Shown here: positions 10,625 through 26,395 of the stretch, in pieces | How positions within the stretch are numbered: position 1 is the first letter of the stretch | Layout: each line of letters begins with the position of its first letter | Assembly: GCA_963745835.1 (NCBI GenBank) | Contig: CAVUZH010000003.1 | Span: 1,088,001 to 1,152,000 of the forward strand | DNA length: 64,000 nt | Source: an uncultured delta proteobacterium | GTDB lineage: Bacteria; Desulfobacterota; Binatia; UBA9968 | Direction of reading: 5' to 3' | Notes under the pieces: model-generated | The model's database searches: none | What the model saw: the letters and a program-made list of their open reading frames with translations, nothing else | What the model was told of the DNA's origin: nothing | Position numbers and translations under genes: made by a program

Positions 10625-11677
10625 TCAATTTGCCGCTAATGGATACATTCTTTTGGGATTCTGCGTCATGATCTTTTGCTTGGTTTCCATCGCGAGGTCC
10701 TCACGAGCGACAAATTTGCTGATATTTTCCCTGAATTCCGAGCGCGGTTCGTGAGGAAAGTCAGTCGCGCAGAAAAGGATATCGTCGCGGAGAAGCTCGA
10801 CGATTCTCGGAATGCCGAGTTCCTCGAGTTCGCAATGGATAAATATGCGGCCGCTCTTTAGATGTTCCGAGGGAGTAATCTTAAGCTCGGGAACCTGCGC
10901 GCTACGGTGTTCGTATTCCAGGTCCATGCGTTCCATCAGATATGGCACCCAACCGCAACCAGCCTCAGCGAACGCCACCTTTAGCTTGGGAAATTTGTCA
11001 AAAATGCCGCCATAGATCATCCCCGTCATTTGAATCATCTGGCCGAAGCCGTGACTCAAGGTGCGAACCTCGATCAAACGGTCGAAGGCGTCCACGCCAA
11101 TGCCTTGCGTCGGAGCGGCATGAACAGCCAGGAGCGCGCCCAACTCTTGGGCCGCCTCATAGACCGGAAAGTATCTCTCGTCACCGAAGGGCTGCCTCAT
11201 TCCGACTGCCGGGAGAATCGCGCCTACCATGTTGAGTTCCTTGACCGCTCGCCGTAGCTCTTTGACCGCCTCCGGTATGGATTGCAGCGGAATCAGAGCC
11301 ATGCCGCGAAGCCGCTTTTCCTGCTTTAAGAATACTTCGGAAAGATAATTGTTATAGCCTTGGGCGATCGCACAAGCCCAGTCCTTGTCCCGGATCAATC
11401 CAAAAGTAAGCCCGGCGGTGGGATACAGCACCGACCATTCGATCTCATCTTCATCTAGAAAATCCTTCCATTCCTTGAGCGATCCCTGCGCCACATAGCG
11501 GCCTTTGCCATCGACGACGCGCAAAGCCTGACGGTGAAATCCATCCAAGGTCGGGAAGAACGGGAACGACAAGAGATCCTCCCTGCCCTTGTAAGGCGGC
11601 GGCAAAAAATCTAACAAAGCCCGATCATTTTCCACCACATGTCCGTCAGCATCGATAAATCCTTTAACCTTAGTCAT
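10625..11677 (-). CDS. Amidohydrolase family protein (Amidohydro_2)
   Basis: IDADGHVVE, LYPT, AVHA, EAGCGWVPY, ATDFPH. Confidence 0.9.
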   Translation of the reverse strand: MTKVKGFIDADGHVVENDRALLDFLPPPYKGREDLLSFPFFPTLDGFHRQALRVVDGKGRYVAQGSLKEWKDFLDEDEIEWSVLYPTAGLTFGLIRDKDWACAIAQGYNNYLSEVFLKQEKRLRGMALIPLQSIPEAVKELRRAVKELNMVGAILPAVGMRQPFGDERYFPVYEAAQELGALLAVHAAPTQGIGVDAFDRLIEVRTLSHGFGQMIQMTGMIYGGIFDKFPKLKVAFAEAGCGWVPYLMERMDLEYEHRSAQVPELKITPSEHLKSGRIFIHCELEELGIPRIVELLRDDILFCATDFPHEPRSEFRENISKFVAREDLAMETKQKIMTQNPKRMYPLAAN

Positions 11678-11897: not shown

Positions 11898-13469
11898 TCA
11901 CCGATCATTTAAGATCATTTTGTGCGACAAAAACTCGCTGACCACATCTTTCGCCTGCCGCTGATCGCCATCGACAGCATAGTTGAGCTCACGCATCTCC
12001 TCGACGTTCAGAATTCCGCCCAGCTGTTTTAGGACTTCTCTTATCTCAGGATGATTCTCCAAAGCCTTCTGCCGCACGACCGGTACCGCATCATAAGGAG
12101 GAAAGTAGTGCAGATCGTCCTCGAGTTGCACCAGGCCGTATCGGCTGATCAGGCCGTCGGTCGAATTCCCGGCAATCAGATCCACTTGCCTCTCCGATAG
12201 AGCGCGATAGGTCAAGGACAGGTCCATTTCACGAATTTCCTTGAATTGAAAACCATAGGTCCGCGCAAAGCCTGGATAACCGTCAGGCCGTGACATGAAA
12301 TCCTGACCGAATCCGGCGCGCCATTGTGTTGACATCCGTGCCGCGTCAGTAATCGTCTTGAGATTATGGCGTCGTGCTTCATCGCCTCGAACCAGGATCG
12401 CAAAGGTATTGTTGAAGCCAAGCGGTTCGGTCCATTCGATGCCGAACTGTTCGACGTAAGACGATTTGACCTGGCGATACACCTCTGCCGGATCCTTAAT
12501 CGCCGGATTTTTTAAGATCGCCAGCAGAGCAGTACCGGTGTATTCGACATAAACATCAATCTCGCCGGCGATCATCGCCTGATGAGCCAGATTTCCGCCC
12601 AGATCGAATCGGCGCTCTACTTGGAGGCCGGTTTTGGCTTCAATCGCCTGCGCCAGCAATTCACCCATAATGATCTGTTCGGTAAAGTCTTTTGAGCCAA
12701 CAGCGATGCGGCTGGCACTGTAACCTCGCAGAAAACTGACAGTGCCAACCGCTATCAGGATGAGGGCTGTCACCAGTGCCGGCCACAAAAGCTTGCGAAT
12801 TTTGTGACTTGCCGCGCCGCGAAAACGGATTGCGCGCTCCAAAAATCCAAGAAACAAATCGGCAACCAGGGCAATCAAAGCAGCCGGAACTGCTCCCGCC
12901 AGAATCAACACGTTGTCATTCGCTCTTAAGCCGCGGAAAATGTATCGTCCCAATCCGCCGGCATCGATGGCGGCTGCGATGGTTGCCGTGCCGACGCAGA
13001 TAACGGTGGCGACGCGCACGCCGGCGATAATGACGCCGAGCGCTAGTGGCAGTTCAACTTGAAGGAGCAGCTGCCGATCAGTCATCCCCATGCCGCGGCC
13101 GGCCTCCCGAATAGCCGGATCGACGCCGCTGATTCCGGTAAAAGTATTTCTAATGATCGGCAGCAGCGAGTATAAAACCAGCGCGGCAATGGCGGTGCGG
13201 GCGCCGATACCGCCGACTATACGCACATCAAAAAGAATCAGGTTGACCGGTATCAGAAAGCCAAAAAGCGCCAAGCTCGGAACGGTTTGCATGATGTTGG
13301 CAAAGCCCAAGACGGGCTTGCTCAACGCCGGTTTACGCGTAAGGAGAATGCCGAGTGGCACACCGATCAGGAGCGCAATACCGATTGAAACGCCGACTAG
13401 AAACAGATGCTCAAAGATCAGTGCAGCCAGTTCAGCCCGGTGCTCGGCGAAAAAACGCAGCAGGCTCAT
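11898..13469 (-). CDS. Osmoprotectant/ergothioneine-type ABC transporter, fused permease + substrate-binding domain (OpuBC/EgtU-like)
   Basis: QTVPSLALFG, EAGRGMGMT, GGLG; C-terminal SBP with GSKDFTEQ, YVEYTGT, GFNNTF, FPPY. ATGA overlap with the upstream ATPase. Confidence 0.9.
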   Translation of the reverse strand: MSLLRFFAEHRAELAALIFEHLFLVGVSIGIALLIGVPLGILLTRKPALSKPVLGFANIMQTVPSLALFGFLIPVNLILFDVRIVGGIGARTAIAALVLYSLLPIIRNTFTGISGVDPAIREAGRGMGMTDRQLLLQVELPLALGVIIAGVRVATVICVGTATIAAAIDAGGLGRYIFRGLRANDNVLILAGAVPAALIALVADLFLGFLERAIRFRGAASHKIRKLLWPALVTALILIAVGTVSFLRGYSASRIAVGSKDFTEQIIMGELLAQAIEAKTGLQVERRFDLGGNLAHQAMIAGEIDVYVEYTGTALLAILKNPAIKDPAEVYRQVKSSYVEQFGIEWTEPLGFNNTFAILVRGDEARRHNLKTITDAARMSTQWRAGFGQDFMSRPDGYPGFARTYGFQFKEIREMDLSLTYRALSERQVDLIAGNSTDGLISRYGLVQLEDDLHYFPPYDAVPVVRQKALENHPEIREVLKQLGGILNVEEMRELNYAVDGDQRQAKDVVSEFLSHKMILNDR

Positions 13470-14233
13470 GAACAGCTCTGCGCCTTTCCGGTATCGCGAA
13501 AACATTGAACAAAAGCCCGAGCCTCAGGATGATTCGAAGCAAGAAGCTCGGCAGGCGGTCCCAAAACGATCATCTCGCCATCCTTGAGTAAGCCGATGCG
13601 CGTTGCCAGGGCGAAAGCTTCGTCCACGTCATGAGTGACGAAAACCATGGTCTTGCCCAGCTGTTTTTGCAGTGAGCGAAACTCTTGTTGGATTTCGCGG
13701 CGCGTAATCGGGTCCAAAGCACCGAAGGGCTCATCTAGAAGGATCATCGGCGGATCTGCCGCCAACGCACGTGCCACCCCGACCCTTTGTCGCTGGCCAC
13801 CGGAAAGTTCCGCCGGATAACGGGCGGCGAATCTGTCAGGCTCCAAACCCACCATCGCTAACAGTTCCCGAGCACGGTTTCTAATTTTATCGGCCGGCCA
13901 ACTTTCAAGTCTGGGTACCAGCCCAATATTCTCTTCAATGGTTAGATGAGGAAATAAGCCAATCTCCTGAATAACGTACCCGATCCGTCGCCGTAAAATT
14001 ATGGGATCCCAAGCTTCTGTTGAGATTCCCTCGACCCTCACTTCGCCGGAAGTCGGCGCAAGTAGACGGTTAATCATCTTCATGGTGGTTGTTTTACCCG
14101 AGCCGCTACGGCCGAGAAGCACCACTGTTTCGCCCCGGTCTATCCTAAGGTTGAGATCAACGAGAAGTTTTTTCCCTTCCGCGATCTCAAAGCTTACGTT
14201 GTTGAATTCGATAGCTACTCGATTGTCGATCAT
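13466..14233 (-). CDS. ABC transporter ATP-binding protein (OpuA/EgtV-like, no CBS domains)
   Basis: GRSGSGKTT, IGYVIQEIGLFPH, LSGGQRQRVGVARALAADP, LLDEPFGALDP. Confidence 0.93.
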   Translation of the reverse strand: MIDNRVAIEFNNVSFEIAEGKKLLVDLNLRIDRGETVVLLGRSGSGKTTTMKMINRLLAPTSGEVRVEGISTEAWDPIILRRRIGYVIQEIGLFPHLTIEENIGLVPRLESWPADKIRNRARELLAMVGLEPDRFAARYPAELSGGQRQRVGVARALAADPPMILLDEPFGALDPITRREIQQEFRSLQKQLGKTMVFVTHDVDEAFALATRIGLLKDGEMIVLGPPAELLASNHPEARAFVQCFRDTGKAQSCS

Positions 14234-14290
14234 CGATCCATTGTCCCCCCGGGTCGCATCCGATTACACTTTCTTATATTCTATTTCGAT

Positions 14291-15319
14291 ATGGAAACAG
14301 AGCCGCTGCCTTCGATCCTTGCGCCGCATCAGAAGGCGCGATGGAAAACCAATCAGGATGGTATCTGGACCTTGGACGGCTCCCGCGTAGATGAGGTCCC
14401 AGCCCGTTCGATTTTGACAACCTTGTGGGATCAGCCGCGCTGGTTGGAGGCCTACCACTTATACGATCAACGAGGCTCCGAGCTTTTCGAACAGATTTGT
14501 CAGCTGCCGGAGTATTATCTGACTCGTACAGAAAATAGCATTCTCGAAGCGCAAGCCGCCGCTATCATCGCCGCCGCGCCGGTAGAATGCATTGTCGAAC
14601 TAGGCGCAGGCTATAGCAAGAAGACGATTCATTTGCTTACCGAACAGCTGCGGCAGCGCGACAAAGGGATCTTCGCGCCCATCGATGTCAGCGAATCAGG
14701 ACTACTGGCCTCGCGAGAAGCGGTCGCCCGAGATTTTCCGCGATTAGAGTTTCACGGACTTCACGCTCGCTATGAGGACGGCTTTACCAGTATCGAGCAA
14801 GCCGTACCGACCCTGTTTGTGTTTCTCGGCAGCACTGTCGGCAACTTCAATCACTCTGACTTTCCACGTTTCTTTCGCGCGTTATCGGAAGCGATGGGAC
14901 CGAAGGATTATCTCCTGCTCGGCGCCGATCGTATTAAAGACACAACGCTTCTCGAGCAGGCTTACAACGATTCACAGGGACTGACCGCGCAGTTCATTCT
15001 GAACGTGTTTTGTCATATCAACGATCTGCTCGGGAGCAATTTTGACCTGGCAAAAATGCGCTATCACGCGCGCTTCAATTCGGAATGGCAGCAAATCGAA
15101 ATGTACGCCATAGCGGAGCAACGTCATCGAGTAAGCTTCCCTACAGTAGAAACATATTTCGAGTGGCAGAAAGACGAAAAAATTCTGGTGGAGATCAGCC
15201 GTAAGTTCGACCCGCAGCGGTTACAGGAACAGCTAAGGTTTTTCGATCTCCTACCGATCGAGCACTTCACCGATCGTAATCAATGGTTTTCCGTTCTGCT
15301 CTTCCGCAAGCAAGGCTGA
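14291..15319 (+). CDS. egtD: L-histidine N(alpha)-methyltransferase (EgtD, Methyltransf_33)
   Basis: YDQRGSELFEQICQLPEYYLTRTE, VELGAG, FLGSTVGN, AYNDSQGLTAQF, IEM, EISRKF. Confidence 0.92.
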   Translation: METEPLPSILAPHQKARWKTNQDGIWTLDGSRVDEVPARSILTTLWDQPRWLEAYHLYDQRGSELFEQICQLPEYYLTRTENSILEAQAAAIIAAAPVECIVELGAGYSKKTIHLLTEQLRQRDKGIFAPIDVSESGLLASREAVARDFPRLEFHGLHARYEDGFTSIEQAVPTLFVFLGSTVGNFNHSDFPRFFRALSEAMGPKDYLLLGADRIKDTTLLEQAYNDSQGLTAQFILNVFCHINDLLGSNFDLAKMRYHARFNSEWQQIEMYAIAEQRHRVSFPTVETYFEWQKDEKILVEISRKFDPQRLQEQLRFFDLLPIEHFTDRNQWFSVLLFRKQG

Positions 15320-15395
15320 ATCTTAGACAACTCCGAAGCTGCCCGGATCGTATCCCGCCGCCGCACATGCGTTAAGAGTGGGCACCCCTTCTCGG

Positions 15396-16040
15396 TCAAG
15401 GCATTCCCAATAACGATCCCAGTGGTGAAATACTCAGCAACAGAACACTGCCGAAGACGGCAATGCCGCCGCCTGAGATGCGATGGATCCACCACAAAAG
15501 ACGCAAATTAAATCTGTCGCGAAACACCGTTAGGCCGAGAAACAATGCCACCCACCACGATGCCGAACCTACAAAGACGCCGGCGGCGAATAGCGCCGCG
15601 CCGCCATACTGGCCAATCATGCTCTGGGAATTCCAGGCGGCATAAATCGCGGCAAAAGACAGTATGGTCACGGGATTTGACAAGGTCAGAAGAAGGGTTG
15701 CCACGTACGTTCGCAGAAGCCCATTGATTCTCTTTGTTCGCGGCGGCGATTGTCCGGGACGCGTGCAGCAGATTTCGTAACCGAGATAACAAAGAAAAAG
15801 CCCGCCGACGAGTCGGAAAGCAAACTGGTGATCAACTAAGAACTGCGATACCAGCGAGATGCTCAGGGCCGCGATGCCTCCGGCCAAAGCATCAGCCGTG
15901 GCGATACCCAGGCCGGAAAAAAGGCCATACCATGGGCCTAGAGACAGCGCTCGATTGATGCACAACAGTCCGAGTGGGCCAACCGGTACTGCCACGACAA
16001 ATCCCATCATGGCGCCTTTGATGAGAAGATGAATTGCCAT
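15396..16040 (-). CDS. LysE family translocator
   Basis: GFVVAVPVGP, GLGIATAD, LTLSNPVTILSF; ~6 TM. Start at the MAIH ATG, 17 bp after the FGE gene. Confidence 0.88.
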   Translation of the reverse strand: MAIHLLIKGAMMGFVVAVPVGPLGLLCINRALSLGPWYGLFSGLGIATADALAGGIAALSISLVSQFLVDHQFAFRLVGGLFLCYLGYEICCTRPGQSPPRTKRINGLLRTYVATLLLTLSNPVTILSFAAIYAAWNSQSMIGQYGGAALFAAGVFVGSASWWVALFLGLTVFRDRFNLRLLWWIHRISGGGIAVFGSVLLLSISPLGSLLGMP

Positions 16041-16056
16041 TCCTGCCGTCGGAACT

Positions 16057-16878
16057 TTAACTTTTTGAGCGCGCGCAGCGAAAGCCGATATTGTGATGAC
16101 CCGAACGGAAATTCCGTGAGACATGAGCGCCTCGATGGGTCGTCGTCAACTCTTCGGCTGCCGAATCCTGACCGCCTCCTCTGGTGACGCGTACGAGGTC
16201 CCGCTGCAACTCTTCACGGCCGTCAGCGGCATTATAGGGATAAGGAAGATACGCGCTGCTCACCCATTCCCAACCGTTGCCCGCGAGATCGAGCACGCCA
16301 TAGGGGCTTGCTCCTTTCGGCAAGCTCCCCACAGGACGGAAGTCATTCCATCCTGCGCTGAAATGCGCCCGGGTGCGATCGGGCGGATCATTGCCCCAGG
16401 GAAATTTTCGCCCGTCTATGCCGCGCGCCGATTTCTCCCATTCCGCTTCAGTCGGCAATCGTTTACCTGACCAATCGCAGTACGCTGCCGCGCCGAACCA
16501 CGAGGCCTCGATTACCGGGTGGTTCTCAAAGCCGGGATCAGACTGCCATTTACCGGCGCGAAGGTGAATGCGCGCGTCGTTATCATCGCTATCGTACCAC
16601 CGTTCGGCAGCTGCACCTCGAACGCCTTTGGCCTCGAGGAACTTGGCAAACTGCGAATTCGTCACCGGTAAACGATCGATGAAAAATTCCGGCAAATCAA
16701 TCCGGTGCTGTGGCCGCTCGTCGGCGGGCCCGTCGTCTCTGCCCATTGAAAATGGCCCGGCAGGGATTCTTCTCATGTCAGCGCCATCGTTTGCATCGGC
16801 GCCGGTCGTTTGCGCGATACAGGCGGTCAATAATACGACCGAAAGTAAACCCCTCCGCCCAAGAAGAAAACGGCTCAT
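16057..16878 (-). CDS. Secreted FGE-sulfatase (SUMF1/EgtB/PvdO) domain protein
   Basis: Signal peptide/lipobox-like LLTAC; IPAGPFSMG, DERPQH, PVTNSQF, RLPTEAEWEKSARG, FPWG, DLAGNGWEW, GFRCA. Confidence 0.9.
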   Translation of the reverse strand: MSRFLLGRRGLLSVVLLTACIAQTTGADANDGADMRRIPAGPFSMGRDDGPADERPQHRIDLPEFFIDRLPVTNSQFAKFLEAKGVRGAAAERWYDSDDNDARIHLRAGKWQSDPGFENHPVIEASWFGAAAYCDWSGKRLPTEAEWEKSARGIDGRKFPWGNDPPDRTRAHFSAGWNDFRPVGSLPKGASPYGVLDLAGNGWEWVSSAYLPYPYNAADGREELQRDLVRVTRGGGQDSAAEELTTTHRGAHVSRNFRSGHHNIGFRCARSKS

Positions 16879-16973
16879 GATCGCAACATACCGCTTTTGA
16901 AAATTCTAGGAAACACCACGAATAGGACGAGCTAAACTTGTCACAGGTTTAAGCCTGTGCGACAGTCCCAACA

Positions 16974-18119
16974 ATGCGCAACTCGCAATCGTTTCGCCGC
17001 CGCGGTGTTGTCGAAGGATTCTTCGGCCCGGTGTGGAGCATGGCCCATCGCCGCCGCCTATTCGAGTTCGGCGCCGCTCGGGGAATGAACACCTATCTCT
17101 ACGCGCCAAAGGACGATCCCTTCCATCGCGAACGCTGGATGGAACCTTATCCTGAGAAGGAATGGCAGGCGCTCTTGACTATCATTCGCGAAGCACGAAA
17201 GCGCCACATCGAGTTTGTTTATGGCTTTCATCCCGGCAAGGCACTTTTGTTTAGCGCCGAGCAACCGCTGCGCGTTCTGCTGTCGAAGGCGCAGCGTTTC
17301 TACGATGCGGGAGTCCGTACCTTCGCAGTGCTGTTCGACGATATCCCTTCTCGCCTGGAGCATGCCGCCGATCGCAAGCATTTCAACAACAGCTTGGCAC
17401 GAGCCGAAGGAAATTGGCTGGCAGAAATCATCGCTCGTCAGCCGCCTGCATGGTCCGACGTGGAGTGGTGGATCTGCCCTTCGTTTTATACCCCTGATCC
17501 ATTACTGGCGCGTGTGTTTGGCGCCTTTGAGCCGCATTTTTTGGAAAATCTAGCGAAGTACCTTCCGTCCAATGTCTCCTGCTGCTGGACCGGCCCTTCA
17601 GTGGTATCGACAAAGATAACCCTCGCGCACGTTAGAAAAATTGCCAAGCTCGTCGGTCGGCCGTTGATTCTCTGGGACAACTATCCGGTGAACGATCTTT
17701 CAATGAAGGACGAGCTTCACCTGGGTCCGTTGAAAAATCGTGACACGCATCTGCCGGAAATCGTTTACGGCTACCTCAACAATCCGTTAGTTCAAGAAGA
17801 ACTGAGCTTTATCCCTTTGGCCACCTGTTTTGATTATGCCTCAAACCCTCTGGCCTATAGAGCGGAAGAAAGTTGGAATGCGATCGTTACACGCTCTTTC
17901 GGTCAGCGCGAGAGCGCGCACTGGCGCGCCATTCGAGCCTTCTGCGAAAGAGTTCAGCGAACTAAACGATCAAAAGTTGCCTCGCGCATGCCGCGCAGAG
18001 AACTGGAAGCCTTGCAAGAGGCGTCAGAATATATAAGGGCACACCGTCAAGAAAGATGGGCCGTGGAAATCAAGCCATGGAAAGAACAGATCGAACGAGC
18101 GCTTAAAGCGCAGAAGTAG
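16974..18119 (+). CDS. Glycoside hydrolase family 84 (O-GlcNAcase/beta-N-acetylglucosaminidase catalytic domain), cytoplasmic
   Basis: RGVVEGFFG..W, NTYLYAPKDDPFHRERW..PYP, catalytic LFDDI, WTGP, LWDNYPVND, LHLGP, NP. No signal peptide. Confidence 0.9.
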   Translation: MRNSQSFRRRGVVEGFFGPVWSMAHRRRLFEFGAARGMNTYLYAPKDDPFHRERWMEPYPEKEWQALLTIIREARKRHIEFVYGFHPGKALLFSAEQPLRVLLSKAQRFYDAGVRTFAVLFDDIPSRLEHAADRKHFNNSLARAEGNWLAEIIARQPPAWSDVEWWICPSFYTPDPLLARVFGAFEPHFLENLAKYLPSNVSCCWTGPSVVSTKITLAHVRKIAKLVGRPLILWDNYPVNDLSMKDELHLGPLKNRDTHLPEIVYGYLNNPLVQEELSFIPLATCFDYASNPLAYRAEESWNAIVTRSFGQRESAHWRAIRAFCERVQRTKRSKVASRMPRRELEALQEASEYIRAHRQERWAVEIKPWKEQIERALKAQK

Positions 18120-18183
18120 ATCGCTATAACTACAATTCGTCCGAATCTTGATCGCGCGCCGAGAGTAGCGTAAGTTTTTCAGA

Positions 18184-19614
18184 ATGATTGATCCCCATAT
18201 TACGGCGAGTTTGCGCGGCAGGCCACTTCCGGCAATGAATGGCGCTGAGCTGATTTCGCTGATGCGAGAGTATCGTTCCCGTACCCGAGAGTTGGTTGCA
18301 GATCTTGATGAGCGACAACTGATCGGGCCGCGTTTAGCAACGGTGAACCCGCCGTTATGGGAGATCGGCCACGTCGGGTGGTTTCAGGAGTTTTGGCTTT
18401 TGCGCCACCTGCGCCGGCAGAAGCCACTGCTTGAGAACGGTGATCAACTCTATAATTCCACGGATGTAGCTCATGATGTTCGCTGGGACCTTCTACTGCC
18501 TTCGCGCGATAATACCTGGCGCTATCTGGACGAAGTCTTGAACCGAGTCATCGAACCGATCGAAGGTAAGCATGATTTATCCGAGGAGGAGGTCTACTTT
18601 TACTCTCTGACCGCGTTTCATGAAGCCATGCACGCCGAAGCCTTGGCGTGCACAAGGCAAACCCACGGTTATCCCAAACCGAGCTTCCTGCCCGACCAGC
18701 GTATCGGCAAAAATCCATCTGATGATTTCCCAGGAGATGCAGATATTCCGGGCGGTGCATTCTTGATCGGTGCGGCGACTGACGGGCCGTTCGTTTTCGA
18801 CAACGAAAAATGGGCTCATGAGGTAGTTCTTCGGCCCTTCCGCATCTCGCGCGCGCCGGTGAGCAATAGAGAATTTCGAGAATTCGTCGAGGACGGCGGT
18901 TATGGCCAGCCAAACTGGTGGAGCGAAGAAGGCTGGCGCTGGCTGGAAACCGGCGGCGCGCCGCAGCTCGAGAATTCGTTCGCAAAATTCTTCAACAAGC
19001 CGATCAAGCAGTCGAGTCAAGCTATTGCCGGTAAAGAGAAACTTGATCATCCCATGTACTGGGACCGTGACCCTGATGGCCACTGGCAACAGCGGGTTTT
19101 TGATCGCTACGTTCCGCTGCATGACAATCTGCCGGTTGTGCATGTCAGTTGGTACGAAGCGGAAGCGTTTTGCGCTTGGGCCGGACGGCGTTTACCGAGC
19201 GAAGCAGAATGGGAAACTGCCGCATCGGCAGAACCAGCTTCCGACGGTTGCAGCTTGATCAACAAACGGCGTCGTTTTCCCTGGGGCGATACGCCACCAA
19301 CAAGTGCCCAGGCAAACCTTGACTGGCAGAACGGAATCGTTGAAATCAGCGCCCATGGAGCAGGCGACAGCGCGTTTGGTTGTCGTCAGATGATCGGCAA
19401 TGTCTGGGAGTGGACCGCTGACAACTTCATGCCGTATCCAGGATTTATCGCGGATCCTTATAAGGAATACTCGAAGCCGTGGTTCGGCACCCATAAGGTC
19501 CTGCGCGGCGGCTGCTGGGCGACCTCTTCGCGGCTCATTCGCAACACCTGGAGAAACTTCTACACGCCGGATCGTCGCGATGTTTTTTCCGGCTTTCGAA
19601 CATGCGCAAAGTGA
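18184..19614 (+). CDS. senA: Selenoneine synthase SenA (EgtB-like non-heme iron enzyme: DinB + FGE domains)
   Basis: NPPLWEIGHVGWFQEFW, LYNS..V.H..RW, FHEAMHAEA, FVFDNEKWAH, GNVWEW, PYKEYSKPWFG, RNFY.PDRRDVFSGFR; adjacent to senB. Confidence 0.85.
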   Translation: MIDPHITASLRGRPLPAMNGAELISLMREYRSRTRELVADLDERQLIGPRLATVNPPLWEIGHVGWFQEFWLLRHLRRQKPLLENGDQLYNSTDVAHDVRWDLLLPSRDNTWRYLDEVLNRVIEPIEGKHDLSEEEVYFYSLTAFHEAMHAEALACTRQTHGYPKPSFLPDQRIGKNPSDDFPGDADIPGGAFLIGAATDGPFVFDNEKWAHEVVLRPFRISRAPVSNREFREFVEDGGYGQPNWWSEEGWRWLETGGAPQLENSFAKFFNKPIKQSSQAIAGKEKLDHPMYWDRDPDGHWQQRVFDRYVPLHDNLPVVHVSWYEAEAFCAWAGRRLPSEAEWETAASAEPASDGCSLINKRRRFPWGDTPPTSAQANLDWQNGIVEISAHGAGDSAFGCRQMIGNVWEWTADNFMPYPGFIADPYKEYSKPWFGTHKVLRGGCWATSSRLIRNTWRNFYTPDRRDVFSGFRTCAK

Positions 19615-19623
19615 TGCTCCAAC

Positions 19624-20574
19624 GTGAAAATCCAGCTCGTCACTCCGGCGCCGTTGCGCTTTAACAACGGCAACAAGATTACCGCCCTGCGGTGGGCGAA
19701 AATCCTTAGAACCCTCGGACACCGCGTAACGGTTTTGCAGCATTACGACGATAAGCCCTGCGATGCGCTGATTGCACTTCATGCGAGACGGAGCTATCAG
19801 TCGATCCGCCGTTTTCGCAAACTTCATCCCGAATTACCCTTGATCGTCGTCCTAACCGGCACGGACCTCTATCGCGATATCCGCAGCCACCGCAGTGCTC
19901 AACGGTCGCTCACGCTGGCGACGCGGATTGTCGCGTTGCAGAAGATGGCATTTTCCGAATTATCCGAATCCTTGCATCCAAAAACTCGGGTGATCTATCA
20001 GTCAGCCGAGCGCTGTTTGAGCCGTAATTCAAAAAATCGAGGAGATGGATTCAAAGTCTCAGTTATCGGTCACCTGAGAAACGAGAAGGACCCGCTGCGA
20101 ACCGCATTGGCGATCCGCCGTTTGCCGAAGCACTCGCGGATCGAGGTACAGCATATCGGCCGGGCGTTGGATAAAGACCTCGAGCGCCGGGCGCGAGCCG
20201 AAATGGCGAGAAACCCACGCTATCGGTGGATCGGAGAGTTGGCGCATAAAAGGACCCGGCAGATTCTAGCGCAAAGCGATGTAACGGTTATCACCTCGCG
20301 CATGGAAGGAAGCTCGAATGTGTTATCCGAAGCGCTCGCCTGCGCCGTGCCGGTTATCGCTTCGAGAATACCCGGATTGATGGGAACCCTAGGAACCGAT
20401 TACCCGGGCTATTTTGCCACGGGCGACACGGGTTCACTGAGAGAAATTCTATTCCGAGCCGAAAGCGATCGGGCCTTTTACCGATCGTTGCAATCAATTT
20501 GCAAGAGCTTATCACCCGTGGTGGCGCCCAAGCGAGAAGTGGCTGCTTGGAAACAACTTCTACAAGAGCTGTAA
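19624..20574 (+). CDS. senB: Selenosugar synthase SenB (GT-B glycosyltransferase, TIGR04348-type)
   Basis: VTPA...NGNKITALRW, LIALHARRS, VLTGTDLYRDI, GHLRNEKDP, SRMEG..NVLSEA, GTLG.DYPGYF. Confidence 0.9.
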   Translation: MKIQLVTPAPLRFNNGNKITALRWAKILRTLGHRVTVLQHYDDKPCDALIALHARRSYQSIRRFRKLHPELPLIVVLTGTDLYRDIRSHRSAQRSLTLATRIVALQKMAFSELSESLHPKTRVIYQSAERCLSRNSKNRGDGFKVSVIGHLRNEKDPLRTALAIRRLPKHSRIEVQHIGRALDKDLERRARAEMARNPRYRWIGELAHKRTRQILAQSDVTVITSRMEGSSNVLSEALACAVPVIASRIPGLMGTLGTDYPGYFATGDTGSLREILFRAESDRAFYRSLQSICKSLSPVVAPKREVAAWKQLLQEL

Positions 20575-20585
20575 TCTTAAAGCTA

Positions 20586-21842
20586 TCAAGATTGCGAAGG
20601 CTCCTCGCGTATCCAGGGTTTCACCCAGGGCAAGAGCAGATAAGCGGGCATAGATAACAAAAAAGTTAAGGCGAAATAGTTGCCATAGCCATAATGCTCT
20701 GCGCCAAGCCCGCTAATCCCGCCGATCAAGCGTCCGGTCAGCGAGAAGATCGAAGAAAGAAAGGCATACTGCACGGTTGCATGCTCTTTTTGACAGATGT
20801 TCATGAGAAAGGCCAGGAATGCCGCCGTTCCCAGGCCGCCGCTAAACGACTCGAACATCGATGCGCTATAGAGGCCGTACCTTCCAAGACTTAACCATTC
20901 GACGGCCGAATAACCCAGATTGGAAAACGCCTGCAGTAAACCCAATAACCACACTGCATGAAAGATTCCGTAACGCGTGATAAAGGCGCCTCCGGCTAAT
21001 GCTCCAGCTATGCTGAGAACGATGCCAAAGCTGGTGGGAAACAGTCCGATTTGAAACATGAGATCTTCCTGCAGCGGCCAAATCGATTTACCGTAATCCA
21101 CCCAGAACGGTTTGACCATCGGGCCGATGGCAAACTCGCCCAGCTTATACGTCAACACGAAAGCCACAAGAGGAATTACCCGCCAAGTCCCGGCCCATCC
21201 GATAAAGCCTCGCCACCAATGCTGGCGCGCTTCCTCGGGCAGATGAAGCCGCGGAATCAGGAGCGCACACAATCCCAGAACAATGAATAGCGCTCCCGCC
21301 AGGTTGAATAAAAGGCTCCAGCGCAGCGCTGCGGCGAGAAACACCAGACCACCACCGACGAATACCAAAGCCACTCGGTAGGCGGAAGCGCGCACGCCGT
21401 TGGCGGGCCCCTCCTCCTCCCGAGCAATCAGCCCGACTGAATAAGAATCAATGGCAACGTCTTGCGTCGCCGACAAGGTCGTAAAAGCGAGTACCAGAAC
21501 GAGAACGAGCAAGCCGACACCGGCAACGTCTACCCACGGCAGCGCAAACAACATCGCTGCGATGCCGAGCATACAACCCAGTACCCACATGCGGCGATCG
21601 CCGTGTCGATGCACCAGCGGCGACCAGATTACTTTTAAAGAATACGGCAGTTCCAGCAGCCGCAAGCCGCCGATGGCGCGCAGCGAAACGCCGTGCAGCC
21701 GAAAGTAAACCGGCAGCACTTCCCAGAGAATAGCCGCGGGCGCGCCCTGAATGAAGTAGAGCAGCGCGACCACACCCAGTTTGTTCTTGGTTTCTGGCGC
21801 CGCCCGACTTACGCCGAGGCATTTCCACATCAGTTCCTGCAT
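20586..21842 (-). CDS. AmpG-like MFS transporter
   Basis: LYFIQGAP, LPYSLKVIWSPLV, SATQDVAIDSY, LTYKLGE, GLGTAAF, ATVQYAFLSS. Confidence 0.85.
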   Translation of the reverse strand: MQELMWKCLGVSRAAPETKNKLGVVALLYFIQGAPAAILWEVLPVYFRLHGVSLRAIGGLRLLELPYSLKVIWSPLVHRHGDRRMWVLGCMLGIAAMLFALPWVDVAGVGLLVLVLVLAFTTLSATQDVAIDSYSVGLIAREEEGPANGVRASAYRVALVFVGGGLVFLAAALRWSLLFNLAGALFIVLGLCALLIPRLHLPEEARQHWWRGFIGWAGTWRVIPLVAFVLTYKLGEFAIGPMVKPFWVDYGKSIWPLQEDLMFQIGLFPTSFGIVLSIAGALAGGAFITRYGIFHAVWLLGLLQAFSNLGYSAVEWLSLGRYGLYSASMFESFSGGLGTAAFLAFLMNICQKEHATVQYAFLSSIFSLTGRLIGGISGLGAEHYGYGNYFALTFLLSMPAYLLLPWVKPWIREEPSQS

Positions 21843-22089
21843 GTCGGTCCTAGGTTAAAAGCAATTACGGTTAGATTCCAACGTTTTCTCACTGTTTATG
21901 GCGGCGTGCCCGCTCATTGTAATGGCTGGGCTCAGTTTAATGAAGCGAAATACACGATTGCCGCGCCGGCCAGTGGGTGAACAGCATAGGCGCTTCACCA
22001 CGTACTATCGGCAAACCACATAATTTGCCCGCCTACGAATCCCCAAGGATCTCCCCGTACCCATTCCTTCATCGATACTTCGTTGTTTC

Positions 22090-22105
22090 GTTACATTGCC
22101 TTAAC
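22090..22105 (+). promoter_or_regulatory. Putative PHO-box-like half-site pair
   Basis: GTTAC at 22090 and TTAAC at 22101, 11-bp spacing, upstream of the 22268 gene. Confidence 0.4.
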
Positions 22106-22267
22106 AATCGCCGGGCTAGTATCGCCGCATCTCACGTGAGGAAAAGTGAAAGAAGCAAACAGGCAATGGCTCACGCCTTTTAGTAGCTAGAGCAGCATGG
22201 ATTGATGGCACTTTTGCGTTGCCCAGTCATTCGATCGAAGAGGAGAAACCCAACAAGAGGAGGTTTT

Positions 22268-22804
22268 ATGGAACGGATCGATTTAACCAAAACAATCAAG
22301 GAAGCGGCCGCCACATTCTGCCAGAACCGGATCGGCGATAAACCGCCGATCTCGGTCACGGTTCCCGCCATCAAGACCGATATTCTTTGGCCTGATCGCA
22401 AGCTTCAGGAACTCGTCAAGCTGTTCCTCTACGAAACGCTTCTAACCAATGATCCTGACGCCGAAGTTACGGTATCACTGCGGCGCCGATCACAGCTGAA
22501 AGATCTCAGCGAGTTTGTCGGCGTGCAACCTACATACTGGCTTCATCTACGTATTTCCGGCCGCGGTGTGAGACTCTCCGAATTTTTCATTGACGAGTTC
22601 TTTAGCGACATCGGCTACACGTGCGCGGAATGGGTCGGCGTTGCGGAATCGGAGACCCGCCTAGGAATATTCACGGCCGCCGGTAAGCCGGAGATAAAAA
22701 TAGTCTTCTGCCTGGACGATGGCCGCTTCAAGCGGAAATTCGATCTCCTGTTGCCGGTGCGCGAGCCGGTTGCGCTTTCACCCGACATCAATGTCAAACA
22801 TTGA
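22268..22804 (+). CDS. Hypothetical protein, possibly a degenerate HATPase_c-like domain
   Basis: Strong RBS GGAGG before ATG 22268; IDL..TIKEA, LQELV.LFL, VTVSL, LRISGRG echo a GHKL fold without N/G boxes. Confidence 0.6.
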   Translation: MERIDLTKTIKEAAATFCQNRIGDKPPISVTVPAIKTDILWPDRKLQELVKLFLYETLLTNDPDAEVTVSLRRRSQLKDLSEFVGVQPTYWLHLRISGRGVRLSEFFIDEFFSDIGYTCAEWVGVAESETRLGIFTAAGKPEIKIVFCLDDGRFKRKFDLLLPVREPVALSPDINVKH

Positions 22805-22899: not shown

Positions 22900-23442
22900 A
22901 TGATGCGCCTAAAAAACATTTTATTGCCAACCGACTTTTCGCAACGTTCCAAACGATCCTTGCGCTATGCCCTGTCTCTGGCGACGGAATACAGCGCAAC
23001 GGTCACCGTGGTGCATGTGGCCAATGAGTTGAATTCCTGGGAGCTCTACTGCGATGAGTTCAGTTTCAGGATTCCAGGCGAAAGAGCCTGGCCCGTTGAC
23101 CGGGTAGTGGCGGAAGCACGCCTCGAGCTGAGCAATTTTCTTGAACCTTATAGCGATACGATCAAGAGACTTCCTGCGCTCTCCAAGCGCATAGGTTTAG
23201 GTCCGATTGCGGATGAAATCGTTAGTGCTGCGGAAGATCTGCAGGCCGATTTGATTGTCATGTCACCGCGCCGGCTTAGAGGTCTGAAACGGATTCTAAC
23301 CCCCAGCATCACCGATCAGGTTATGCGAATAAGTCCGTGTCCGGTTTTGTCTGTCATAGATCCCCTTCCCTCCCATCCATGGCGAGGGAAGGGGATAACT
23401 AGACTATGCGCCTGGCCAAAACCAAGGTTCGCCAGTGTTTGA
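22900..23442 (+). CDS. Universal stress protein (USP)
   Basis: KNILLPTDFS..S..SLRYALSLA, ADLIVM, SITDQV...SPCPVL. Confidence 0.9.
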   Translation: MMRLKNILLPTDFSQRSKRSLRYALSLATEYSATVTVVHVANELNSWELYCDEFSFRIPGERAWPVDRVVAEARLELSNFLEPYSDTIKRLPALSKRIGLGPIADEIVSAAEDLQADLIVMSPRRLRGLKRILTPSITDQVMRISPCPVLSVIDPLPSHPWRGKGITRLCAWPKPRFASV

Positions 23443-23459
23443 CCAAAACGGAGGAGAGC

Positions 23460-24047
23460 TTGCTCAACTATCATAACGGGCGGACGATCAGGCAGTCTCG
23501 TCGTTTCACTCTGGAGGAGGAGTTACTGCGATTATGGCAACACTTCGATGCGTTGACGTTCTTCAACCGGGTCATGGACCTGTTTTTCAAGCTACTGATC
23601 TTCTTCGTTGTCGTTGTTCTCGGTATGGGACTCGTCAGGCTGTTCTGGGAGACCTGGAGGATCATGGCAGTCAGCGAACTGAAAGACGCTTTCAGTTTTA
23701 CGGTCACCAACCTGCTGACATTTTTCATAATCCTGGAGCTGTTTAAAAGCCTGGTGGAATATTTTCGCGAGCACCGTCTTAGACTGACGTTTATTGTCGA
23801 TGCTACCTTGGTATTCATACTGCGCGAGGTCATGATCAGTCTCTACCAACATCAAAGCCCGCCACTGTTGATTACAGCGCTCGCGTTCCTGGCGCTCGTA
23901 CTCGGCGTGTTGCGGACTTTAGCGATTGTCTATTCCCCAATGGAACGAAATATGGTCGAGCATCTCGTCGAGAGTAAGCACCATGCGCAGCATTCCGAGG
24001 AGAAGATAGCCGGACGTTCGGAAACGGCGAGCCTTTTCGCCTTCTAA
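23460..24047 (+). CDS. Phosphate-starvation-inducible PsiE family membrane protein
   Basis: LLTFFIILELFKSLVEYFREH, FIVDATLVFILREV; RBS GGAGG before TTG 23460. Confidence 0.82.
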   Translation: MLNYHNGRTIRQSRRFTLEEELLRLWQHFDALTFFNRVMDLFFKLLIFFVVVVLGMGLVRLFWETWRIMAVSELKDAFSFTVTNLLTFFIILELFKSLVEYFREHRLRLTFIVDATLVFILREVMISLYQHQSPPLLITALAFLALVLGVLRTLAIVYSPMERNMVEHLVESKHHAQHSEEKIAGRSETASLFAF

Positions 24048-24439
24048 ATAACACGGAGAATAATAATGATGCCCGCGCCTTTTATCGAACTGGAAGTCCA
24101 ATATGTTGACAAAGCTTCATTTGATCGATCGTTGGCCGCGATGTCCAAGTTGGCACACGAGTTGATCGATCAACTGAATATCATTTGACTTTGCTTTGGA
24201 CCCGGCGATTTCCTACAGTTGGTACCGAGCCTCTCCAAACGTGTTTCGCGAAACAGTCATGAACTTAGCGGGGCCATGAAGAACACACGCTGCGGCACCT
24301 GTACTATAAAGAGCGGGCTTGAGCAGAATGGCTCTATTGCTTCAGATATAATCTTCGAGTTTAGCATGATCGCGTTAATTTGTTTGATTGTTCGCTCCCT
24401 AGAAGGAGAAGCCCTCCTAGGGAGCTTGCGTTTCTCGGA

Positions 24440-26395
24440 TTAGGTGCCGATCTGACCGCCATCATCCTTGGTAATCACAATACACGCCGAGCGCGGACGT
24501 CCGCCCGCATCCCCATCGGGCCACGAGCTGAACCGCTTCGGATTGGCCGGATCGTTGGGCGACTCGTCGGCAGTCTCGCCGGGGTGCTGAATGCCGACGA
24601 ACATGGTGCGTTCGTCAGGCGTGACGAATACGCCGGTAACCTCGCACTGCTGCGGGCCGACAAGAAAACGGCGGACCTCGCCGGTTTGCGGATTGGAGCA
24701 GAGCATCTGATTGTTGCCGAATCCGGCGTAGTCGCCGGTGTTGATGGTCGAGGTTGATACATCCGTCTGAATCCAGAGCCTGCCGCTCGGCGCCACGTAA
24801 ATACCGTCGGGGGAACCGAACTTGTCGCCTTCAACGTCCGAGCCGTGCGCCGGCACCGCCGGGTCACCGGCGAGCATGAAAATCTCCCACTCGAACGTCG
24901 GCTCGGTCCAGTCCTTTCGGTACTTCCACGTAACGATGTGACCGTACACGTTGTTGGGCCGCGGATTGATGGCATCCACCGGCGGGCGGGCCGAACCCGC
25001 CAGAGTGGTGCCATCCGGATTGTTTACCGAAACCGGAGTAGTGCCGCGCCGGTTGTTATTGGTAAGCGTGCCGATAGCAGTGAGCGCGTGGGGAAAAGTA
25101 TCGATCCACTCAGGGCGATCCATCATTGTGGCGCCGACCGCATCGGCCGCGCCTCGGGTATTGAGCAGAATGTCGTTCAGTGACCAAGCAGCCAGCGCCG
25201 GATTGGCCGGGGTCAGCGGCAGCCATTCGCCAAAGCCGCTGTCATGAAACTTGGCGACATAAAGAACCCCATCGTCAAGCGGATTGATCCCCTGCCGCCG
25301 CGCCCTGCGCCAGGGCAGGTTCGAGACATAACGATAGATGTACTCGTTGCGCTCGTCGTCGCCCATGTAAACGACGATTCTGCCGTCGTTCGCCTCTTGT
25401 ACCCAGGCGCCCTCGTGCTTTAAGCGCCCGAGCGCGGTGCGCTTAACCGGCGTCGATTTGGGATCGAACGGATCGATCTCGACCACCCAGCCAAACCGGT
25501 TCGGCTCGTTGGGCTCGAGATCGGCGTTGAATCTGGGATGGGTGGTGTGCCAGCGTAACCCCGAACTGGAGGGAGAGATGCCGTATCGCAATTCCAGCGG
25601 CGTCCTGTTGGGAAGAGTCTTTTGAAAGAAACCGTGGAAATTTTCCTCGCAGCTGAGAAAAGTTCCCCAGGGCGTAAAGCCCATGGCGCAGTTGTTCACC
25701 GTACCGAATACGATGCTGCCGGTCGGATCCGCGCTCGTTTTTAATCGCTCATCTCCGGCCGCCGGGCCGCCGATAGCAATCGGCGTCTGGGCGGTGATAC
25801 GCCGCCCGTATCTTGACGGACGTACCACTTGCCACTTGCCGCCTTGGTTGATGATCTCGATGATCGCGATACCATGGGCGTTGAGCGATTTGTTGGTCTT
25901 TTCTTCATTCCAGTTGGCGATGCCATCTGAAAACAGTAGTCCATCGTCGGTGTACTCATTGTTTTGCACGAGCAGGCCATGCGCCGATCCCCTGATTGGG
26001 AAGTACACCACGCCGTCATTGTGCATGCCCCATTGCTGCGCCTGGTCGGCAGCGCTGTTGCTGCCATCCTGCTTGAACTCCGGGCCATTGGAGACCGGAT
26101 CGCCCCATGCGACGAGAACTCGCGCGCTGTATCCCGGGGGCACTACGACGGTATCTGCATCAGAAACCGGCACGCCTCGAAAGCCCAGCAATGGTCGAAG
26201 CGAGCCCTGGCCGATATCTTGGGCCGAGGCCGGAACAGATCGCAGCAGAGCATTAACACCGCTGAAAGAAACTGCCGCAGCCGCAGCAAGACCGCCGCCG
26301 AGAAAGCCCCGTCGAGATAGGCGGGCTTCGACAATGTCTTGGAAACTCCGGTTGCCAGAATTGTTACTTACCTCATCGTCATCGATTTTAGCCAT
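24440..26395 (-). CDS. phoX: PhoX family alkaline phosphatase (Tat-exported)
   Basis: Tat motif SRRGFL; GMHNDG, NNEY, NCAMG.TPWGT.LSCEEN, ALGRLKHE, MDRPEW, SPDG, IQHPG. Confidence 0.95.
   Translation of the reverse strand: MAKIDDDEVSNNSGNRSFQDIVEARLSRRGFLGGGLAAAAAVSFSGVNALLRSVPASAQDIGQGSLRPLLGFRGVPVSDADTVVVPPGYSARVLVAWGDPVSNGPEFKQDGSNSAADQAQQWGMHNDGVVYFPIRGSAHGLLVQNNEYTDDGLLFSDGIANWNEEKTNKSLNAHGIAIIEIINQGGKWQVVRPSRYGRRITAQTPIAIGGPAAGDERLKTSADPTGSIVFGTVNNCAMGFTPWGTFLSCEENFHGFFQKTLPNRTPLELRYGISPSSSGLRWHTTHPRFNADLEPNEPNRFGWVVEIDPFDPKSTPVKRTALGRLKHEGAWVQEANDGRIVVYMGDDERNEYIYRYVSNLPWRRARRQGINPLDDGVLYVAKFHDSGFGEWLPLTPANPALAAWSLNDILLNTRGAADAVGATMMDRPEWIDTFPHALTAIGTLTNNNRRGTTPVSVNNPDGTTLAGSARPPVDAINPRPNNVYGHIVTWKYRKDWTEPTFEWEIFMLAGDPAVPAHGSDVEGDKFGSPDGIYVAPSGRLWIQTDVSTSTINTGDYAGFGNNQMLCSNPQTGEVRRFLVGPQQCEVTGVFVTPDERTMFVGIQHPGETADESPNDPANPKRFSSWPDGDAGGRPRSACIVITKDDGGQIGT

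Follow-up and report, generated by a model that had tools for sequence, protein, structure and literature searches.

In the EgtB route to ergothioneine, EgtC and EgtE trim the scaffold of the sulfur donor once the C–S bond has been formed. The published route to selenoneine, encoded by the senABC cluster of Variovorax paradoxus, consists of three enzymes and the sugar leaves by spontaneous selenoxide elimination, so that a step of the EgtC/EgtE type is reported not to be needed (Kayrouz et al., 10.1101/2022.04.13.486033). SenB prefers UDP-GlcNAc (PMC10891094), SenA prefers SeGlcNAc, and the reduced hercynyl-SeGlcNAc selenoether has been seen in vitro (10.1101/2022.04.13.486033). The words glycosidase, hydrolase and acetylglucosaminidase are absent from the main text of that preprint and, in agreement with a preliminary description of this DNA which held that no glycosidase is a described member of the pathway, none was linked to it in the literature searched (main texts), where selenoneine or senB never appeared together with GH84. 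The only paper there to mention both selenoneine and N-acetylglucosaminidase deals with fungi and is unrelated, and in a selenosugar review OGA appears only as an inhibitor target.

Among described GH84 enzymes, human OGA, Clostridium perfringens NagJ (CpNagJ) and the Bacteroides thetaiotaomicron enzyme are multidomain or secreted and act on glycoproteins or glycans, while TtOGA of Thermobaculum terrenum (PDB 5DIY) is a stand-alone intracellular barrel plus helical bundle that has an OGT partner and removes protein O-GlcNAc. The window, that is, the whole 64,000-nucleotide stretch of DNA analysed here, encodes a GH84 protein that has the family and catalytic machinery of the first three, differs from them in being stand-alone and cytoplasmic, and is in this respect like TtOGA. 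Its gene precedes senA and senB, and the locus points to a putative, undescribed sugar-removal or recycling step beside the selenoneine genes of a soil bacterium. Any likeness to EgtC and EgtE is by analogy only, as the protein families are unrelated.

A GH84 gene beside senA and senB

The GH84 gene (16974..18119, + strand) encodes 381 aa and matches PF07555 (NAGidase) over residues 10-319 (E 1.1e-80, 271.5 bits against a cut-off of 25). Its catalytic pair, D122-D123 in the motif VLFDDIP, aligns with D297/D298 of CpNagJ, and Y172 with its Y335; D122, D123, K46, Y172, N236, D241 and N270 do not vary across 25 sequences of the window protein's own clade (see below) and 137 other GH84 sequences. 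Because residue 10 already belongs to the domain and no 15-residue stretch of the first 60 aa exceeds a hydropathy of 0.71, the protein has neither a signal peptide nor a membrane segment, which bears out the earlier view of a cytoplasmic stand-alone domain with an intact DD pair; the β-N-acetylglucosaminidase activity is predicted from sequence. The AlphaFold model (pLDDT 94.7, pTM 0.92) is a (β/α)8 barrel with a C-terminal helical bundle, and the best 49 PDB matches listed for it are all GH84 (TM 0.71-0.87), led by intracellular TtOGA (TM 0.87). TtOGA is also the best sequence match (E 1.4e-68, identity about 32-48%) and shares both the DD motif and the sugar-binding Asp. The GlcNAcase equivalog model NF041654, with a cut-off of 1000 bits, was matched at 188 bits, over positions 144-423 of 732 alone.

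Two features separate this protein from a protein O-GlcNAcase of the TtOGA type. Searching the 97.1%-complete window genome for an OGT of the GT41 type alone (PF13844) gave no matches, while the control matched in 2/14 genomes. Further, where TtOGA has Tyr in the motif GFYG, the clade has Phe (F17), together with five further fixed substitutions (H86, F93, S170, F189 and L272). In human OGA this position is taken by Tyr69, a residue that contacts and anchors the peptide backbone; Phe occupies it in 25/25 clade sequences and Tyr in 134/137 other GH84. Protein O-GlcNAc cycling would here lack both its GT41 partner and its Tyr69 equivalent.

The layout described earlier, GH84-senA-senB on one strand with spacers of 64 and 9 bp, is exact in the ORF coordinates. 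The product of senA (18184..19614, + strand; 476 aa), the selenoneine (selenoxide) synthase, has DinB_2 and FGE-sulfatase domains (Pfam) and scores 494.8 bits against NF041186 (cut-off 420), and that of senB (19624..20574, + strand; 316 aa), the selenosugar synthase, 397.9 bits against TIGR04348 (cut-off 300); adjacent and above curated cut-offs, the two constitute a sen cluster. GH84 and SenB are each encoded once in the genome. Upstream, egtD (14291..15319, + strand; TIGR03438, 296.5 bits against 290.9) encodes the histidine N-α-methyltransferase that yields hercynine, the SenA substrate, and in two relatives (G002 and G013) it lies immediately upstream of GH84. The locus thus shares senA and senB with senABC and has egtD nearby, but its senA and senB are collinear, whereas they are divergent in most other sen loci, and a GH84 gene is added (in family f1 also an AmpG-family permease). 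The selenophosphate synthetase SenC/SelD is not encoded in the cluster; the only selD above cut-off, with one in-frame TGA, lies on another contig (C22).

Between GH84 and senA, the 64 bp spacer (18120..18183, + strand) contains neither a predicted terminator nor a stable hairpin and is no more stably folded than its shuffled versions (z +1.76), and no terminator-like site was found on the + strand from 14000 to 22500. Many relatives carry an inserted α/β-hydrolase gene in this spacer, at times with a VOC/glyoxalase gene. Contigs from four soil metatranscriptome runs, 95-99% alike, cover parts of GH84, senA, senB and the permease; two of them bridge senA and senB, and none among the 32 records listed (30 more exist) bridges 18119-18184. 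GH84 may belong to the same operon. One contig spans GH84 and the divergent FGE-like gene, so DNA carry-over in these RNA libraries is possible.

That divergent gene (16057..16878, - strand) encodes an FGE/SUMF1-like protein (PF03781, E 1.1e-50) lacking the DinB domain (Pfam), whose best PDB matches are formylglycine-generating enzymes. With its lipoprotein-type signal and an N-terminus ending in LLTAC, it is probably periplasmic and outside the cytoplasmic sen chemistry. It adjoins GH84 in families f1 and f2 at 66-73% identity.

Conservation of the GH84-senB pair

Among 61 related genomes of the window's order (Binatia), GH84 occurs in 54 and SenB in 55. A linkage peculiar to the window genome would have spoken against the earlier proposal. 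It is not peculiar: 52 genomes possess both genes, in 44 of them the two lie no more than 5 kb apart on a single contig, and in seven of the other eight a contig ends within or beside the cluster. In G021 GH84 and senA-senB are apart. In four genomes GH84 is the immediate neighbour of senB and senA lies at another site (G013 in f1; G037, G039 and G041 in f2). Only GH84 and SenB, of 28 window ORFs (positions 3.7-34 kb), remain neighbours in f2 and f3; SenA is retained in f1 and f3, and the FGE-like gene in f1 and f2. The adjacency persists through at least two rearrangements, although these related genomes are non-independent samples. Co-occurrence within the order carries little information because both genes are near-universal there (GH84 in 82/86 genomes at least 90% complete). 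From four genomes (G030, G035, G043 and G045; 71-95% complete) GH84, SenB and the orthologue of the permease are missing together, which we do not count as support since one deletion or incompleteness explains it equally well, and two apparent SenB losses (G002 and G047) are contig ends instead. In the rest of the phylum sample SenB occurs in 2/301 genomes and GH84 in 4/301, two of these non-orthologous.

The window GH84 belongs to an isolated clade (identity at least 56%), every other GH84 being at most 41% identical. Among 3649 matches, the best clade representative scores 492 bits (56%) and the next full-length GH84 at most 272 bits (at most 41%), and in the GH84 tree the clade stands on a branch of length 1.13 with support 100/97. 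The distinct sen-linked clade that a tree had been proposed to reveal is thus present. One sequence within it, P0254 (branch length 4.8), was treated as a long-branch artefact, and the protein-atlas phylum label 'Pseudomonadota' was left unused as probably reflecting old 'Deltaproteobacteria' labels on MAGs.

Metagenomes give the same association. SenA or SenB accompanies 24 of 41 clade GH84 loci; 15 are too short and two are without, giving 24/26 informative loci, as against 0/39 non-clade GH84 loci (21 of the 39 with at least 4 kb of flank). From the SenB side the picture differs: 65 SenB loci outside the order were free of GH84 in their flanks, none of five SenB-bearing genomes outside the window's lineage has any GH84, and only one of five further SenB-bearing genomes does. 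The pathway evidently works without GH84, which is not a general member of it.

Outside the order, the clade occurs in one Burkholderiales family, in 9/151 genomes. SenB is near-universal there (140/151), and co-occurrence statistics, offering no contrast, were discarded. SenB lies next to the clade GH84 in one of the nine and was not found in two. The linked case, the only one from outside a single order, is G448, whose GH84 is 60% identical to the window's and 2.3 kb from a SenB of proteobacterial type (67% identity to those of L057 and L075, 42-48% to the Binatia types); to judge by these identities, the pairing is an independent re-assembly of the GH84-senB adjacency. The G448 cassette includes an ArsR-rhodanese regulator and, as in L108, a SemiSWEET-like match beside GH84 that is weak (E 0.002, below the Pfam cut-off). 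In G423 a sugar ABC importer (binding protein plus two permeases) is directly upstream of the clade GH84, and in G407 the gene lies behind an MFS_1 transporter.

Possible roles of the enzyme

The explanation we prefer, and hold tentatively as having a little less than an even chance, is that a catalytically competent cytoplasmic GH84 β-N-acetylglucosaminidase of a specialised clade acts as a Se-GlcNAc glycosidase, salvaging or proofreading SenB/SenA products. The clade would have been drawn into the selenosugar chemistry based on SenB as an accessory, with β-Se-GlcNAc compounds from SenB and SenA as its most likely substrates: either free 1-seleno-GlcNAc, as such or oxidised, or the selenoether hercynyl-SeGlcNAc, a reduced dead-end product. 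Hydrolysis by the usual substrate-assisted GH84 mechanism would give GlcNAc and a selenol (selenoneine or selenide), in a role of salvage or proofreading and not of core biosynthesis; substrate and direction of flux are what we infer. The cleavage of S-glycosides had been supposed unknown for the family, but it is already in print: human OGA, a GH84 enzyme, is reported to cleave thioglycosides.

In favour of this explanation as a whole we counted the GH84-senB adjacency within the order, the isolated clade, the metagenome control, the G448 re-assembly, the GlcNAc preference of SenB and SenA, the selenoether in vitro, GH84 thioglycoside cleavage, the lack of a GT41 OGT and Phe for the peptide-anchoring Tyr. 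Against it we counted the 65/65 other SenB loci without GH84, the mostly unlinked Burkholderiales copies, the separation in G021, the near-universality of the genes, the kinship of the genomes and the lack of a listed RNA contig bridging the GH84-senA spacer. A hydrolase clade tied to senB would mean that some bacteria use enzymes to deal with the sugar, or selenosugar, side of the pathway. A Se-glycosidase would represent a new natural GH84 activity and a handle on selenosugar turnover, as well as a practical route to higher selenoneine yield through rescue of the reduced selenoether. A bolder extension, which we consider unlikely, is that the clade is the first natural selenoglycosidase and forms, with SenB and a sugar transporter, a selenosugar cycle partly independent of selenoneine: SenB would store selenium as Se-GlcNAc, cells might export or import it, and GH84 would free the selenium. 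The senB-GH84 pairs without senA, the Burkholderiales ArsR-rhodanese/SemiSWEET-like cassette and the GH84 gene that follows an ABC sugar importer would then all be forms of such a cycle.

Retaining glycosidases can hydrate glycals. It is conceivable, though improbable at about one chance in five, that the enzyme hydrates 2-acetamidoglucal from SenA selenoxide elimination to GlcNAc, recovering the sugar and removing a hexosaminidase inhibitor. In the related OvsA reaction, to which its authors liken SenA, release of the sugar as 2-acetamidoglucal was observed (10.1101/2024.04.10.588772); the genome encodes one GH3 NagZ-like enzyme as a possible target of inhibition; and relatives add α/β-hydrolase, glyoxalase-like VOC and Amidohydro_2 genes beside GH84, as expected of multi-step processing of a sugar by-product. 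Yet 2-N-acetyl glycals are listed as inhibitors of hexosaminidases, not as substrates (PMC6017319, citing Santana 2016), GH84 on separation follows senB and not senA (which is still elsewhere in those genomes), and most selenoneine producers are without any GH84. If hydration did occur, a need for by-product detoxification would be common to all selenoxide-synthase pathways. The preliminary description, which envisaged Se- or S-glycoside cleavage or selenosugar recycling, overlooked this compound; of its interpretation, the recurrent linkage, the clade and the absence from the literature hold, and the S-glycoside novelty and general membership do not.

Somewhat less probable again is that the enzyme cleaves an imported GlcNAc glycoside, such as a selenosugar or a GlcNAc-selenoneine conjugate released by neighbours, which would be selenium or sugar scavenging and not biosynthesis. 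Clade genes adjoin four kinds of sugar transporter (AmpG-family MFS in f1, SemiSWEET-like if the weak match is accepted, MFS_1 and the ABC importer), and the regulator in G448 fits as well. However, in f2 and f3 no sugar transporter adjoins the cluster, the AmpG-family gene being confined to f1, the SemiSWEET match is under the Pfam cut-off, and export or import of selenosugars is purely hypothetical.

We regard as equally doubtful that there is no functional link, the enzyme being a general-purpose GlcNAc hydrolase of the cytoplasm (OGA-like or housekeeping) whose place beside the sen genes was fixed ancestrally and then co-inherited. The nearest solved relative, 5DIY, is a genuine protein O-GlcNAcase, a single order accounts for every linked case except one, 8/9 of the copies in Burkholderiales do not adjoin senB, and one deletion would explain the co-loss. 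Set against this, the adjacency outlasts a change of every other neighbour and was re-created in G448 with a SenB of non-orthologous type, the 39 ordinary GH84 loci lack sen genes, the genome has no GT41 OGT, and the clade was found only in two lineages with near-universal SenB and in no other part of the phylum sample.

The gene convergent with senB (20586..21842, - strand) encodes an AmpG-family MFS permease (TIGR00901, 241.4 bits, under the cut-off of 350), single-copy in the genome; its orthologue, always next to SenB where found, occurs in 31/36 f1, 0/5 f2 and 0/19 f3 genomes and is an f1-specific addition to the cluster. That permease and GH84 together recycle peptidoglycan, GlcNAc being removed from imported muropeptides, is very improbable, as GH84 persists beside the sen genes in f2 and f3, where no orthologue of the permease was found, a GH3 NagZ-like gene is already present and the permease falls below the AmpG family cut-off.

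Two further transport systems are encoded upstream of GH84. A betaine-type ABC importer (11898..14233, - strand) comprises a permease-OpuAC fusion (11898-13505; Pfam BPD_transp_1 and OpuAC) and an ATPase (13466-14233; ABC_tran; proV subfamily, 278.9 bits, under cut-off), an architecture that we take to be like that of the ergothioneine importer EgtUV. It accompanies egtD and GH84 in five relatives (L096, L112, L125, L134 and L144) at 69-78% identity. A LysE-family exporter (15396..16124, - strand; PF01810, E 2.7e-16) is a conserved neighbour of the cluster in family f1.

Organization and expression of the sen cluster

The GH84 gene (16974–18119, + strand) encodes a 381-aa protein with a Pfam NAGidase/GH84 domain at residues 10–319 (E 1.1e-80), and is followed on the same strand by senA (18184–19614; NF041186, 494.8 bits; cut-off 420) and senB (19624–20574; TIGR04348, 397.9 bits; cut-off 300), with spacers of 64 bp and 9 bp, respectively. 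An ORF check reproduced exactly the positions that a preliminary, sequence-only description had assigned to these three genes. GH84 and SenB are each present in one copy in the 7.28-Mb genome, while selD is unlinked to the sen genes, lying on another contig (G000:C22:69235–70161); its reading frame includes a single TGA, in line with a selenophosphate synthetase that contains selenocysteine. In the literature searched, no paper connects GH84 or another glycosidase with either pathway, sen or ovs, in agreement with the preliminary description of the sen pathway, and supplementary neighbourhood tables, outside the scope of that search, might list one. The cluster offers a candidate new enzyme activity that is testable.

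Upstream, egtD (14291–15319, + strand; TIGR03438, 296.5 bits against a cut-off of 290.9) sits beside a betaine-type ABC importer (11898–14233, − strand) in which the permease is fused to an OpuAC binding domain and the ATPase is a protein of its own; the importer stays with egtD among relatives (69–78% identity). Its architecture resembles that of the ergothioneine importer EgtUV, so its cargo may be ergothioneine, selenoneine or hercynine. Between egtD and GH84 lie a LysE exporter (15396–16124, − strand) and, divergent from GH84, an FGE/SUMF1-like gene (16057–16878, − strand) whose product lacks the DinB iron domain, bears a lipoprotein-type signal (‘LLTAC’), is probably periplasmic and has formylglycine-generating enzymes as its closest solved structures. 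A homologue of this protein (55%) also occurs near SenB and EgtD in a betaproteobacterial locus (L078). The outer flanking genes are unrelated (Usp, PsiE, PhoX, PPK2, alcohol dehydrogenase and NMT1-type binding proteins), and include a phosphate-starvation-type run just past the cluster (22900–27508; Usp, PsiE, PhoX alkaline phosphatase, PPK2).

Co-transcription of GH84, senA and senB is plausible. No terminator-like site was found on the + strand, and the GH84–senA spacer has less structure than shuffled sequence. In four soil metatranscriptome runs, contigs cover parts of GH84, senA, senB and the AmpG-family permease gene downstream of them. Two of these contigs bridge senA–senB, and none among the records listed crosses the GH84–senA spacer (18119–18184); since one contig reaches across a divergent gene pair, these runs may contain some carried-over DNA.

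Linkage of GH84 to senB

The linkage is not peculiar to this genome; had it been, the proposal of the preliminary description would have been refuted. Among 61 relatives from three families (f1–f3) of one order, 54 have a GH84 orthologue, 55 have SenB and 58 have SenA-family genes, and coordinate tables place GH84 and SenB no more than 5 kb apart on one contig in 44 of the 52 genomes that have both (42 of 50 without the unpublished G012 and G018). Seven of the remaining eight have a contig end inside or beside the cluster, leaving G021 as the sole genome of the 52 in which the two are truly separated. A GH84 orthologue is present in 82 of 86 genomes at least 90% complete, a tally that takes in the unpublished G012, G018 and G389.

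Of the 28 ORFs at positions 3.7–34 kb of the window, only GH84 and SenB are still neighbours in f2 and f3 loci; f1 and f3 also retain SenA, while f1 and f2 keep the FGE-like gene beside GH84 (66–73% identity). Two types of rearrangement place senA elsewhere while GH84 stays with senB: FGE-like gene, GH84, senB in f2 (G037, G039, G041) and egtD, GH84, senB in f1 (G013). In many relatives GH84 and senA are separated by an inserted alpha/beta-hydrolase gene (~277 aa), in some cases together with a VOC/glyoxalase-like gene (~266 aa; L117:2787–3620, L096:10690–11523, L144:11181–13770, L140:1015–3043), whereas the window has neither, but the 64-bp spacer alone. In f3, GH84 is preceded on its own strand, at a distance of 14 bp, by an Amidohydro_2 gene (L027:6307–7431) that is 28–30% identical to the window’s Amidohydro_2 gene (10625–11677, − strand), which is about 5 kb upstream of GH84, beside the ABC importer.

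In a sample of 301 genomes of the phylum, SenB exceeds its cut-off in two, both f1, and GH84 occurs in four, two of these proteins being just 34% and 28% identical and in genomes that lack SenB. Of 588 loci confirmed in a SenB-alignment scan of species genomes, the best 80 include nine with GH84 close to SenB, all nine within 15 loci titled ‘Binatia/Deltaproteobacteria’ with collinear senA–senB; of five loci so titled that were mapped, four belong to the window’s order. GH84 is absent from the flanks of the other 65 of these 80 loci (Proteobacteria, Actinobacteria, Chloroflexi, Bacillota, Planctomycetes, Acidobacteria and one archaeon), and PF07555 from all five genomes of such loci that were searched; the pathway thus does not generally include this enzyme.

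Burkholderiales provide a second setting. There, clade GH84 (the sen-associated group containing the window’s protein) was found in 9 of 151 sampled genomes of one family at 57–67% identity, and SenB in 140 of 151, a tally that includes the unpublished G418 and G551. The GC content here is 0.60–0.66, like that of the Burkholderiales sen contig (0.64) and not the window (0.53–0.55). In G448, GH84 lies 2.3 kb from the genome’s sole SenB in a cassette (L100:6457–10901) of SenB, an ArsR-rhodanese regulator, a fatty-acid-hydroxylase-like gene, a small SemiSWEET-like gene (weak, E 0.002) and GH84, with senA on other contigs; metagenome locus L108 repeats it at 99% identity. Since this SenB belongs to the proteobacterial type, with 67% identity to L057 and L075 against 42–48% to Binatia types, the adjacency was assembled independently.

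A distinct GH84 clade

The preliminary description had looked to a tree for a distinct sen-linked group, and such a clade emerges from maximum-likelihood analysis on a branch of length 1.13 (support 100/97). Among 3649 matches to GH84 in 1.84 billion representatives, one is full-length at 492 bits and 56% identity, and the next-best full-length proteins reach at most 272 bits and 41%; named members of this second tier are Bacillota ‘protein O-GlcNAcase’. In a metagenome scan with the clade alignment, SenA or SenB shares the contig in 24 of 41 clade loci, 15 of the 41 having less than 4 kb downstream, and both are absent in two with Burkholderiales-like GC. None of 39 ordinary GH84 loci (≤40% identity) carries a sen-cluster gene, at least 4 kb of flank being available in 21.

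The catalytic pair, D122–D123, is accompanied by K46, Y172, N236, D241 and N270, which do not vary among 25 sequences of the clade and 137 from the rest of GH84. Six sites that are 81–98% conserved in other GH84 proteins carry a different, fixed residue in every or almost every member of the clade (usual residue in brackets): F17 (Tyr), H86 (Ser), F93 (Tyr), S170 (Thr), F189 (Tyr) and L272 (Met). F17 aligns with Tyr69 of human O-GlcNAcase (OGA), a residue near the catalytic machinery (PMC2973230) that anchors the peptide backbone in one OGA–glycopeptide complex (PMC5610315). By hydropathy there is no signal peptide, and the catalytic domain starts at residue 10. The AlphaFold model (pLDDT 94.7, pTM 0.92) predicts a barrel and C-terminal helical bundle and best matches the intracellular T. 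terrenum O-GlcNAcase (5DIY, TM 0.87), followed by CpOGA, OgOGA, BtGH84 and human OGA, an order that sequence search repeats. TtOGA functions together with an O-GlcNAc transferase (PMC4683255), whereas no GT41 was found in the window genome.

Possible substrates

Since senB is the clade’s only invariant partner, the likeliest substrate is a GlcNAc derivative whose existence depends on SenB, and some functional tie to SenB chemistry seems quite probable. SenB favours UDP-GlcNAc (PMC10891094); SenA favours SeGlcNAc and yields a selenoxide that undergoes spontaneous elimination, and with reductant a reduced hercynyl-SeGlcNAc selenoether appears (preprint 10.1101/2022.04.13.486033). We tentatively rank first a salvage or proofreading role, in which the enzyme would hydrolyse Se-GlcNAc glycosides. 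An S-glycosidase activity, which the preliminary description took to be unknown in the family, would not be new, thioglycoside cleavage by GH84 being already in print. The window SenB and 12 other proteins aligned with it carry an ‘EGSSNV’ motif that retains the Glu, whereas the V. paradoxus study reports ‘EGGAHV’ as a conserved motif for donor binding (PMC10891094).

Hydration of 2-acetamidoglucal is a less likely second choice; the related OvsA reaction releases the sugar in that form (preprint 10.1101/2024.04.10.588772), and listed hexosaminidase inhibitors include N-acetyl glycals (PMC6017319). That the enzyme cleaves a GlcNAc or seleno-glycoside taken up from outside is unlikely. In favour of this reading, GH84 in the Burkholderiales genome G423 (L101:9646–13889) comes last in a run with the solute-binding protein and both permeases of a sugar-type ABC importer, and in MAG G407 a clade GH84 of 62% identity precedes an MFS transporter, on a separate contig from a canonical sen locus. 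Equally doubtful is that GH84 has no functional link to the sen genes, although eight of the nine Burkholderiales copies are not adjacent to SenB. SenB was not found in two of the nine genomes; SenA-family genes occur in all five tested. A role in muropeptide recycling is highly improbable: the AmpG-family MFS permease convergent with senB (20586–21842, − strand; below its family cut-off and the genome’s sole copy) is confined to f1 (31 of 36 genomes, against 0 of 5 in f2 and 0 of 19 in f3), and GH84 is therefore independent of it. This f1-only addition is always convergent with senB there and, at 69–99% identity, more conserved than SenB.
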